Source: a virus (lineage: Duplodnaviria; Heunggongvirae; Uroviricota; Caudoviricetes). Taken from it: a stretch of 12,621 bases of DNA. The stretch spans positions 1 to 12,621 of the IMG/VR virus record IMGVR_UViG_2872180393_000003. One strand, written 5' to 3'. Numbering within the stretch: position 1 is the stretch's first letter; each line of letters starts with the position of its first letter. Position numbers and translations under genes: made by a program. Positions 6,457 to 7,718 of this stretch are shown in pieces. Under the pieces are notes generated by a model. It made no database searches and was not told where the DNA came from. It saw only the letters and a program-made list of their open reading frames with translations.

Positions 6457-6551
6457 CTATTTATCCGGTGCGCCGCCAGAATGACGGCGCGGTGTGGTTA
6501 AACGAAGCGGATCTGGAGTTTTTTTCCAGTAGCGCGGGCGAATTTTTTTAG
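6453..6551 (+). pseudogene. ninF-like start, interrupted (32 codons to a stop at a T7 run)
   Basis: ATG 6453 overlaps the ninE stop and encodes [32 protein letters not shown]. Its 3' part lies antisense to the antitoxin C-terminus, so the early-block boundary is within 6457-6551. Identity with lambda NinF is not verified. Confidence 0.3.
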
Positions 6552-6806
6552 TGTGGCAAATGATGGGCCGCTGATACCTGATGCGAGATTACTTTCCATT
6601 CTGGTGATCGCGGTCGCTTTTGTTCCCATTCGCTCGGCAACTTCAGCCTGAGTTAAGCCAGCTTCTTTGCGTGCTGCCAGCATTTCATCAAGCAGTGCGA
6701 ATTCGTCAGCGATAGCGTCGTATTCTGCTTTAAAAGCCGGGTCTTCCATCCATTTGGCTGCCATTTCGTCGTGTGTCATGGTGGGGAGAGTGCGTTTACC
6801 AGTCAT
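6498..6806 (-). CDS. HTH (XRE-type) antitoxin, HigA-like
   Basis: 102 aa ending ...LTQAEVAERMGTKATAITRMESN...KKLQIRFV, a helix-turn-helix antidote-type protein. AAGGAGG lies 7 nt upstream of ATG 6806, inside the toxin 3' end; 11-bp overlap with the toxin. Confidence 0.75.
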   Translation of the reverse strand: MTGKRTLPTMTHDEMAAKWMEDPAFKAEYDAIADEFALLDEMLAARKEAGLTQAEVAERMGTKATAITRMESNLASGISGPSFATLKKFARATGKKLQIRFV

Positions 6807-7125
6807 GCTTAACCTCCTTCATTCTGGTTTCAGCTTTCTTGCGTTCGGCTGGCGGTGTTTTCTGCGTTTTCTTTACAAAACTATGCAGCATGATGATGCG
6901 TTTCCCTGTCAGAGTGCAGTAAAAAACACGCGCGATCCCATCGTTGCCTTTAATTCTGAGTTCGAAAAGTCCGTCACCAAAGGCGCTGGTGTGAGGTTCT
7001 CCGAGATTGCTGCCATATATCTTCATACGTTCAACGAGATGTTGGTATCGGGCACGCATACTCAATGGAAGCCGATCGACTTCCAGCCTTACATCTTCAC
7101 TGTAGTATTCGATAGTGTAGTTCAT
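6796..7125 (-). CDS. RelE/ParE-superfamily toxin, HigB-like (Gp49-type)
   Basis: 109 aa from MNYTIEYYSEDVRLEV... to ...RIIMLHSFVKKTQKTPPAERKKAETRMKEVKHDW; the FxKKTQKTP...E...A..R motif is characteristic of Gp49/HigB-like toxins. Toxin-first gene order is as in higBA. Start is uncertain (alternative ATG at 7137; the track ORF to 7206 is probably over-extended). Confidence 0.75.
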   Translation of the reverse strand: MNYTIEYYSEDVRLEVDRLPLSMRARYQHLVERMKIYGSNLGEPHTSAFGDGLFELRIKGNDGIARVFYCTLTGKRIIMLHSFVKKTQKTPPAERKKAETRMKEVKHDW

Positions 7126-7247
7126 AGGTATCAACATAACAAAATCGTTATATGCATTCAAGGCCTGTAGTTGACGACAACACATATCCGGGGCTATATT
7201 CCTCATACGCCAGCAAAATCTGGCGTCGGGATTGAGACCCCGGATGT

Positions 7248-7718
7248 TTACGGAGCGATATGAGACGCGCCCGCGTCTTTTTTCATATCGTTTGCACAGT
7301 CACATTCGCGATTTATGGTGGGCTGTGTGGGGGAGCCGAAACCGATAACCATTTCTTTGTTGAAGAGACAAAGCGAGCAGGCCAGTCCGATCGCGGTCCA
7401 ACTGAGCCCCATTTCACGGGATTTTTCGGTAATACCATTCTCCCGATTGCTCCAGCGTTCCATAATCCAGTGGATCCACTCCTCCTGCTTAGGGAAGAGT
7501 AAAAACGGAATGGTCACCGGCAGGCCATAATCAATATTACGCGGGTCCGTTGTCATGCCCCAGCCGATAATGAACTGAGCCGGGTTGGTACGGTAAAACT
7601 GTTTTAGTGCAGGCAATATTTCAGGATTCTGGCGAATGCGCTGTAGGCGTTCCATCCGCCATTCAAAAACCATCTGGTAATCAGGATGTTTAAAATCGAA
7701 GGGGAATGGTAACGGCAT
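7248..7718 (-). pseudogene. phage terminase large subunit, N-terminal fragment only
   Basis: ATG 7718 overlaps the terminase small subunit stop. The N-terminal 125-130 aa look terminase-like (...[13 protein letters not shown]...), but the ORF stops after 156 aa where terminase large subunits are 400 aa or more. The last ~30 codons run through junction sequence containing a hairpin. Confidence 0.65.
7263..7283 (+). terminator. orphan terminator-like hairpin with T6 tail, plus strand
   Basis: AGACGCG-CC-CGCGTCT followed by TTTTTT. There is no plus-strand gene upstream, and it is not terminator-like on the minus strand (A-run precedes the hairpin). Confidence 0.35.

Follow-up and report, generated by a model that had tools for sequence, protein, structure and literature searches.

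The window analysed here is a stretch of 12,621 nucleotides (nt) of Caudoviricetes DNA, positions 1 to 12,621 of IMG/VR record IMGVR_UViG_2872180393_000003, and represents a decayed lambdoid prophage lying next to mlrA. Its nin region carries, on the minus strand, a pair of overlapping genes which we read as a type II toxin-antitoxin (TA) cassette, a small mobile unit encoding a Gp49/Tad-type ('HigB-like') toxin and an antitoxin with an XRE-type helix-turn-helix (HTH) domain (Ata/HigA-like). We put the probability of this reading, including the mechanism proposed below, at about 0.75. The features of the pair are as follows.

6796..7125, minus strand: toxin gene, 109 amino acids (ATG 7125, stop 6798-6796); the protein begins MNYTIEYY and is Gp49-type (Tad/HigB-like), RelE superfamily
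6498..6806, minus strand: antitoxin gene, 102 amino acids (ATG 6806, stop 6500-6498); an N-terminal extension and an XRE/HTH_3 domain
6813..6819, minus strand: Shine-Dalgarno (SD) sequence of the antitoxin, AAGGAGG, within toxin codons K103-E104-V105 and 6 nt 5' of the antitoxin ATG

The initial annotation, made from the sequence alone, had proposed that a 109-residue toxin precedes an XRE-type antitoxin, and this is borne out by the open reading frames (ORFs), by Pfam and Protein Data Bank (PDB) matches and by the predicted fold. Hidden Markov model (HMM) searches with both proteins found similarity of HigB/RelE type (Gp49) for the first and of XRE type (HTH_3) for the second. The toxin matches Pfam Gp49 (PF05973) with 89.6 bits (E 1.4e-25, cutoff 23.9) over profile positions 3-90 of 90, and the antitoxin matches HTH_3 with an E value of 3.4e-11. 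PF05973 was present in 120 of the 120 toxin homologues among the matches listed. The best PDB matches of the two proteins are the two chains of a single complex from Streptococcus pneumoniae, 6af3_A (HigB) for the toxin and 6af3_B (HigA) for the antitoxin, and a profile built from 35 toxin homologues finds S. pneumoniae HigB at 2e-8 and Mycobacterium tuberculosis HigB1 at 2e-3 in the PDB. In every homologous locus examined the toxin comes first and is followed by an overlapping gene for an XRE-type HTH antitoxin, and the Gp49/Tad class is described as always toxin-first (PMC2701414, Makarova et al.; PMC5906591, Armalyte et al.).

The AlphaFold2 model of the toxin (mean pLDDT 90.8) shows a strand at residues 4-7, helices at 10-17 and 21-37, four strands, and a helix at 92-108. 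This predicted combination of a RelE-type sheet, two N-terminal helices and a long C-terminal helix is that of the Gp49 fold within the RelE superfamily, in which a long alpha-3 helix is a trait of the Gp49 type (PMC9098466). When the model was searched with Foldseek, Gp49-type HigB structures ranked first, with TM scores of 0.72-0.78 (6af4_A 0.76, 7awk 0.75, 7nbu 0.72).

The residues of the putative active site point in the same direction. For ribosome-bound M. tuberculosis HigB1 a pocket of nine residues has been proposed, comprising E66, R68, N73, R77, F93, K95, Q98 and K99 together with the mRNA-contacting K58 (PMC9098466). In the HMM alignment E66, R68, R77, F93, K95, Q98 and K99 correspond to the identical toxin residues E55, R57, R66, F83, K85, Q88 and K89, and six of these seven are invariant in the 35 homologues, the exception being Q88. 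R57, R66 and K85, the counterparts of HigB1 R68, R77 and K95, are also the counterparts of RelE K54, R61 and R81, so that a basic catalytic pocket is predicted. Given the conserved pocket and the homology, an mRNase mechanism is the most likely one for the toxin.

None of the canonical HigB families of Pfam matched the toxin, for which Gp49 is the sole Pfam match at E <= 0.01, and the Proteus vulgaris HigB structures aligned with it in Foldseek at TM scores of only 0.50-0.54 (E about 0.1). Searches against NCBIfam models returned only sub-threshold matches for the pair. Because the toxin is closest to Gp49-type HigB and the canonical families are unmatched, we label it Gp49/Tad-type ('HigB-like') and its partner an Ata/HigA-like HTH antitoxin; the name HigB of the initial annotation stands in the loose Gp49/Tad sense and fails in the canonical one. 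By fold, profile and residue comparisons, made on the sequence and on the predicted structure, the toxin belongs with the ribosome-dependent mRNases of the Gp49-type HigB/Tad group, such as S. pneumoniae HigB and M. tuberculosis HigB1, and not with canonical HigB or ParE.

Each of these known systems differs from the cassette in some respect. Both partners are matched best, in sequence and in fold, by S. pneumoniae HigBA (6AF3/6AF4), which shares the long C-terminal helix and a K-(K/R)-T-Q-K-T-P motif, but identity is ~20% and the pneumococcal toxin is a chromosomal protein of a Gram-positive host, 141 residues long with an N-terminal extension. M. tuberculosis HigB1 (7NBU, 7AWK) has the Gp49-type fold (TM 0.72-0.75) and seven of the nine pocket residues; as the toxin of a toxin-antitoxin-chaperone (TAC) system it requires a SecB-like chaperone, whereas the cassette has no third gene. 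Canonical HigBA (Proteus Rts1, E. coli K-12) resembles the cassette in its toxin-first operon, its HTH antitoxin and its promoter-overlapping operator, the last of these being predicted here, but its toxin is of another family, to which the fold of the present toxin compares with a TM score of about 0.5. A further likeness is to the Tad-Ata or Gp49-type 'HigBA' modules (pAMI2 Tad-Ata, N15 gp49-gp48, SXT, IncC HigBA and Acinetobacter baumannii HigBA1/2), which belong to the same PF05973 (COG4679), are toxin-first with an XRE-HTH antitoxin, are carried by phages or plasmids, and include members with antitoxin autorepression and replicon stabilisation; the present subfamily differs as a distinct, uncharacterised branch whose promoter leaves no room for a toxin leader or SD.

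The two ORFs share 11 nt (ATGACTGGTAA). An antitoxin SD embedded in the last codons of the toxin had been noted from the start and was confirmed at 6819-6813; it is AAGGAGG or AAAGAGG in the Salmonella, Edwardsiella, Photorhabdus, Arsenophonus and Acinetobacter homologues. Likewise the toxin was correctly described as having no obvious SD, since the 20 nt upstream of its ATG contain no purine-rich element of this kind. The start of the 109-residue toxin is itself well defined, M-x-Y-(T/S)-I opening 35 of 35 homologues down to 61% identity. In-frame upstream ATGs at 7137 and 7206 were considered and rejected as toxin starts, as homologues begin at MNY; in two variants (TUM9812 and C5) an in-frame TAA separates the equivalent of the 7137 ATG from the MNY start.

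To look upstream of the toxin we aligned nine DNA-level variants of the cassette together with loci from Salmonella, Edwardsiella, Photorhabdus and Arsenophonus. The sole conserved non-coding block 5' of the toxin consists of TTGnnn, 17-18 nt and TAT(G/A)TT, with a TG one base before the -10 box in most variants. In the window this block corresponds to two features.

7133..7161, minus strand: predicted TA promoter, with -35 TTGAAT (7161-7156), a 17-nt spacer ending in TGT (7141-7139) and -10 TATGTT (7138-7133)
7136..7151: candidate operator ATAAC-N6-GTTAT, an inverted repeat in the spacer that overlaps the -10 box

The extended -10 element TGtTATGTT (7141-7133) is separated by 7 nt from the toxin ATG at 7125. 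Across the variants this gap is 4-7 nt long, variable in sequence and without an SD, and the promoter block, the operator and the short gap are conserved in E. coli/Shigella, Salmonella, Edwardsiella, Photorhabdus and Arsenophonus. Sequence 5' of the -35 TTG is unrelated between cassette groups. The spacing of 4-7 nt between -10 box and ATG explains the missing SD of the toxin: its mRNA is probably leaderless, with a start placed by spacing in the sequence.

The inverted repeat ATAAC-N6-GTTAT occurs once in the window (chance 0.25, with one mismatch allowed), and eight cassette loci each contain a single copy at the corresponding position. It is also found in Salmonella, Photorhabdus, Arsenophonus and Edwardsiella, and in POCJ13, PhiR5_2 and Edwardsiella it forms a palindrome that is perfect over 16 bp. 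A promoter-overlapping inverted repeat conserved together with the antitoxin is the arrangement of type II TA autoregulation, and these alignments suggest it here; they make the repeat a better operator candidate than the palindrome further upstream to which the initial annotation had assigned that role (see below).

We propose the following mechanism. By analogy with M. tuberculosis HigB1 and the HigB of IncC plasmids, the toxin would bind the ribosomal A site and cleave mRNA. The N-terminal part of the antitoxin would neutralise it, and the HTH domain would repress TTGAAT-17-TGtTATGTT by binding ATAAC-N6-GTTAT over the -10 box. The transcript would start at or beside the toxin AUG and so offer a leaderless, inefficiently translated toxin message, while the antitoxin would be translated efficiently from AAGGAGG, coupled through the 11-nt overlap. 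With a weak leaderless toxin and a strong, coupled antitoxin SD, the antitoxin would be in excess even though it is encoded by the second gene. Were expression lost, the more stable toxin would be freed, and retention of the cassette would be favoured even in a decaying prophage.

Several observations weigh against this reading. The closest characterised toxins are only ~20-24% identical over the structural alignment, and K58 and N73 of the M. tuberculosis HigB1 pocket are replaced in the toxin by S47 and D62. The match to NCBIfam TIGR02683 (upstrm_HI1419 RelE/ParE toxin) reaches 20.4 bits against a cutoff of 62.85. Two Gp49-type toxins of M. tuberculosis, HigB2 and HigB3, were non-toxic when expressed (PMC9098466). 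On the side of transcription, the TA promoter has 8 of 12 consensus matches, which is below the threshold of the scanner, so that it went uncalled; spacing alone places the transcription start; and the 4-nt gap of Arsenophonus leaves little room for transcription to begin precisely at the A of the ATG. Finally, the homologue on an Acinetobacter plasmid has a leader of ~25 nt, so leaderlessness is not family-wide.

These transcriptional points bear on a different account of toxin expression, which we regard as a minority possibility, roughly one in five: that the toxin mRNA does have a leader, transcription starting further upstream and ribosomes initiating at the SD-less AUG by an A/U-rich, S1-dependent route. 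Over the 26 nt leading up to the toxin ATG the A+T content is about 73%, the promoter hexamers are weak, and the leader of the Acinetobacter homologue is short and has no strong SD, all of which would suit such initiation. The alignment argues otherwise. Sequence 5' of the TTG is unrelated between variants and genera, so there is no shared upstream promoter, and conservation of the TTG, of the spacing of 17-18 nt and of TAT(G/A)TT goes further than the operator arms would require.

As to function, Gp49-type relatives are ribosome-dependent mRNases encoded in operons repressed by HTH antitoxins, and they stabilise replicons (IncC HigBA, PMC8265657; A. baumannii HigBA2, PMC5906591; Tad-Ata, N15 and SXT, PMC2701414). 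By this analogy a role in addiction or in abortive infection is plausible for the cassette, and persistence in decaying prophages is in keeping with a selfish module of the addiction type. That its main role is instead anti-phage defence, an abortive infection protecting the lysogen, seems to us possible and on a par with a leadered toxin message in likelihood. The cassette, an accessory unit, is read in the opposite direction to the phage operon, a frequent orientation for accessory genes expressed in lysogeny; the C-terminal half of the toxin matches part of PADLOC NsnC (1.2e-9); and other TA systems defend against phages. The NsnC match is nevertheless partial, covering 51 residues of a 293-position profile at the C-terminal end of NsnC. 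A PADLOC-DB search with the pair found no defence system of this architecture, returning only the partial NsnC match and generic HTH matches, and it is replicon stabilisation that has been demonstrated for characterised Gp49-type pairs.

With window positions 6470-7186 as query, 31 of 5426 complete E. coli genomes proved to carry the cassette, in each case on the chromosome, in four sequence groups with at least 99%, about 92%, 86-90% and about 80% identity. It occupies at least four different positions in prophage early regions, which include those after ninE, after ren/lygF-type genes, and between DUF4222 and Rha/ash genes. In 13 of 15 contexts, comprising all the E. coli, Shigella, Salmonella and Arsenophonus ones examined, it is antisense to the neighbouring phage early genes. 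Downstream genes run in the same direction as the cassette at the two Edwardsiella loci, as does sbcB, beside which the Photorhabdus locus lies. An identical toxin protein is encoded in prophage remnants of Shigella riddled with insertion sequences (ISs), S. dysenteriae Sd197 among them, and in genomes with exactly the rearranged layout of the window. DNA matches on Salmonella plasmids span the antitoxin alone, and the one that was examined has no toxin ORF of at least 60 amino acids upstream. Our search of the literature found no paper on this specific cassette.

The closest plasmid-borne homologue lies on Acinetobacter pittii p1_100004 (locus L011, 1198-1801), with a toxin 66% and an antitoxin 48% identical; it sits among phage-like genes (BRO, a regulator) behind a strong TTGCCA-17-TAATAT promoter. 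The possibility that this homologue is the A. baumannii HigB2 already studied was rejected, the published cloning primers encoding MWTVITT. This uncharacterised Acinetobacter variant is carried on about 94 Acinetobacter plasmids.

A direct repeat, CCGGATA on the minus strand, flanks the cassette at 7185-7191 and 6462-6468, and at this place phage WGPS8, which lacks the cassette, carries CCGGATAAAT just once. The repeat could mark a recombination or insertion junction; the adjoining bases differ between the two backbones. We considered insertion with target-site duplication: the adjoining bases of the comparator differ, and the 5' flank of the cassette itself supplies the -35 box of the isrK gene described below.

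Between cassette variants we calculated the ratio of non-synonymous to synonymous divergence (dN/dS) by the Nei-Gojobori method, at dS values of 0.2-1.8. It was 0.02-0.16 for the toxin and 0.02-0.11 for the antitoxin. Both genes, as a family, are under strong purifying selection, as the initial annotation had suspected from their intactness, and the two proteins differ at one residue from those of an intact relative.

This bears on the proposal that the two genes form a relic, degenerate or no longer toxic, or serve simply as regulators, with the HTH protein mainly a phage transcription factor. The absence of toxicity in M. tuberculosis HigB2 and HigB3 and the two altered pocket residues lean that way, as does the position of the cassette beside antirepressor control elements in seven of nine DNA-level contexts. 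Set against them are the selection on both genes, which holds at dS values up to 1.8, the invariance of the equivalents of RelE K54, R61 and R81, and a conserved expression design of the TA type, with its overlap, strong second-gene SD and promoter palindrome; we consider a relic or regulator pair improbable, with odds of around one in eight.

Still less probable, at perhaps one chance in twenty, is that the toxin is a ParE-like gyrase poison and not an mRNase. PGAP annotates the pair as a 'RelE/ParE family' toxin with an HTH protein (in one phage record it is HigB/HigA), and Foldseek returned ParE2 chains as weak matches. The best matches by fold and by sequence, however, are all Gp49-type HigB RNases, followed in Foldseek by YafQ, RelE and YoeB, and more than 20 RNase toxins rank above ParE2, whose TM scores are 0.44-0.49. 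The toxin moreover keeps the basic residues found in the pocket of ribosome-dependent RNases.

The palindrome upstream of the pair, CGCCAG-CAAAAT-CTGGCG, had been flagged as the candidate operator. It does exist, one base away from the coordinates first given (6-bp arms at 7208-7213 and 7220-7225), and its arms are really 7 bp long: ACGCCAG-CAAAAT-CTGGCGT, 7207-7226. The window contains three perfect palindromes with 6-bp arms and a 6-nt spacer, against 2.9 +/- 1.6 in shuffled sequences, and the palindrome is therefore unremarkable on its own. It falls in a unit on the plus strand with the following parts.

7207..7283, plus strand: IsrK-family small RNA (sRNA) gene, Rfam RF01394 at 70.6 bits (gathering threshold 50), model positions 1-77 of 77
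7171..7200, plus strand: predicted isrK promoter TTGACG-18-TATATT, 10 of 12 matches in a consensus scan, back to back with the TA promoter
7262-7279, plus strand: isrK intrinsic terminator, called by the consensus scan; within the gene the terminator takes up 7262-7283

The IsrK match overlaps one to RF03163 (c4-a1b1, 45.3 bits). In the alignment to the Rfam model the palindrome, 7207-7226, is helix 1 of IsrK, with its loop GCAAAAUC conserved. Promoter, gene and terminator are predicted to make up a complete transcription unit of ~77 nt. The hexamers and spacing of the isrK promoter are identical in WGPS8, where the isrK element is followed by the C4 antisense RNA and then by an antirepressor gene. 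Neither POCJ13 nor KY176 has the palindrome or the isrK element upstream of its cassette. In TUM9812 a wholly different sequence, GGCACC...GGTGCC, stands in for the stem and still pairs, while the antitoxin differs at 5 of 102 residues; a stem that has changed yet pairs beside a near-identical antitoxin fits an RNA helix and not a binding site of the conserved HTH domain. By these comparisons of sequence the palindrome is outside the TA circuit and forms the 5' stem-loop of a putative, divergent IsrK-like sRNA gene on the opposite strand. That it should be the operator of antitoxin autoregulation is thus most improbable, for although it is a perfect inverted repeat 83-102 nt 5' of the toxin ATG and present in window-type and PhiR5_2/G1_2-type contexts, it belongs to a full-length IsrK/c4-a1b1 match on the other strand, occurs where there is no cassette, is lost or swapped where there is one, is not enriched over chance and lies upstream of the conserved promoter block.

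IsrK of Gifsy-1 controls the translation of a downstream antirepressor (PMC4825925). The predicted window element resembles it, and the P1-type c4/a1-b1 control, in the full-length Rfam match, the promoter, the two 5' hairpins and the terminator, and the isrK-orf45-anrP layout is matched in intact relatives by isrK, then C4 RNA, then an antirepressor gene. It differs from Gifsy-1 IsrK in that the downstream C4 and antirepressor part has been removed at a rearrangement junction (7331-7341).

The TA and isrK promoters stand back to back, their -35 boxes 9 bp apart, and the isrK -35 box TTGACG (7171-7176) is part of the DNA that moves together with the cassette. In seven of the nine DNA-level contexts, the window included, the cassette lies divergently beside a module of isrK, C4 RNA and antirepressor/Rha genes (isrK/C4 at L001 7808-7996, L004 4740-4925, L006 3237-3425 and 4226-4414, L007 3261-3449, L008 3240-3427 and L009 3711-3899), an adjacency that may be functional or may merely reflect a hot spot of recombination. 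In the intact relative the C4 RNA is at L001 7912-7996. We entertain, as a speculation to which we give about one chance in ten, the idea that the cassette is functionally joined to the divergent IsrK/C4-antirepressor switch in a single unit, the TA balance being coupled to the decision between lysogeny and induction. During induction, antiterminated transcription from PR would then run antisense through the whole TA operon. If this were true, the coupled unit would be an induction checkpoint or a lysogen-specific trigger of abortive infection, and the leaderless toxin message would be a general solution to the problem of antitoxin excess in toxin-first operons.

Under the reading of the pair as a Gp49/Tad-type TA cassette, it is an ordinary, intact and already automatically annotated kind of element, and a rare mobile unit, so that the value of the analysis is mostly at the level of annotation. 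The reassignment of the palindrome to an IsrK-type sRNA avoids a wrong operator annotation. The comparative data also yield a testable design of promoter, operator and leaderless message that could explain antitoxin excess in a toxin-first operon; how the toxin:antitoxin ratio is set was left open for A. baumannii HigBA (PMC5906591), and a leaderless design would answer that question for this subfamily. Two points are of modest interest: the toxin message is probably leaderless, and the cassette recurs back to back with the IsrK/C4 antirepressor switch. The cassette also illustrates cleanly how a small accessory unit can pass from one phage early region to another and, in Shigella and E. coli, outlast the decay of its prophage.

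The surroundings of the pair agree with the first impression of intact genes in a decayed prophage, as evidenced by a split integrase, IS copies, a short Q, a truncated terL and an inverted late block. The relevant features are these.

6280..6456, plus strand: ninE, an early gene converging on the cassette (Pfam NinE, 1.4e-42; annotated in the intact relative)
7331..7341: rearrangement junction with an 11-bp overlap, joining the nin region to an inverted, truncated terL (BLAST against L001)
1981-3181, plus strand, and 11422-12621, minus strand: IS3-family copies (orfA/orfB, rve domains), inverted and 99.6% identical

By BLAST, positions 5242-7341 are colinear at 99.4% with the intact relative L001 (E. 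coli RMDEC465), in which the gene order is ninB-dam-ninE, the TA pair on the opposite strand, and antirepressor genes. In intact relatives isrK is followed by the C4 RNA and antirepressor genes, which the window has lost at the 7331-7341 junction. Past 7331 an inverted block carries the truncated terL, terS, a KilA-N gene, lysis genes, two tRNAs and Q, and its far end abuts an IS at 11422; the same junction layout is present in other genomes (L015, L017). Q abuts this second IS copy, the relative's sequence ending at 11422, and its ORF encodes 130 amino acids against more than 200 in relatives. One IS3-family copy adjoins a replication gene and the other adjoins Q; the two are likely substrates for the inversion. 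At the edge of the window the mlrA (MerR-family) gene lacks its HTH start (1-648, minus strand), and beside it a phage integrase is split into two ORFs (723-1671, minus strand); the prophage appears to have integrated in mlrA and its integrase to have been inactivated.

Three smaller observations concern the ends and the interior of the cassette and the inverted block. Downstream of the antitoxin there is a further conserved element.

6470..6490, minus strand: G+C-rich hairpin GCGCCGUC-AUUCU-GGCGGCGC, 3' of the antitoxin stop and without a U-tract

The hairpin is kept in eight of nine cassette variants. The consensus scan made no intrinsic terminator call at 6470-6490, and the hairpin may act as a weak terminator of the TA transcript or stabilise its 3' end. 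In KY176 (E. coli JNEC-KY176, L005 2178-2483) its place is taken by a second, unrelated gene, for a 'HigA family addiction module antitoxin', directly 3' of the cassette antitoxin. A repeat search with a minimum length of 10, which misses the 7-bp-arm palindrome, reported only an inverted repeat within the toxin coding region, at 7066-7085. This repeat of 10+10 nt has no spacer (TGGAAGCCGA/TCGACTTCCA, 90% complementary), is kept in POCJ13 with one further change, is gone from the 80% variant and is probably due to chance. Lastly, between Q and the holin gene of the inverted block lie two tRNA genes on the minus strand, 10633-10705 and 10714-10785, whose counterparts in L001 are tRNA-Asn and tRNA-Thr.

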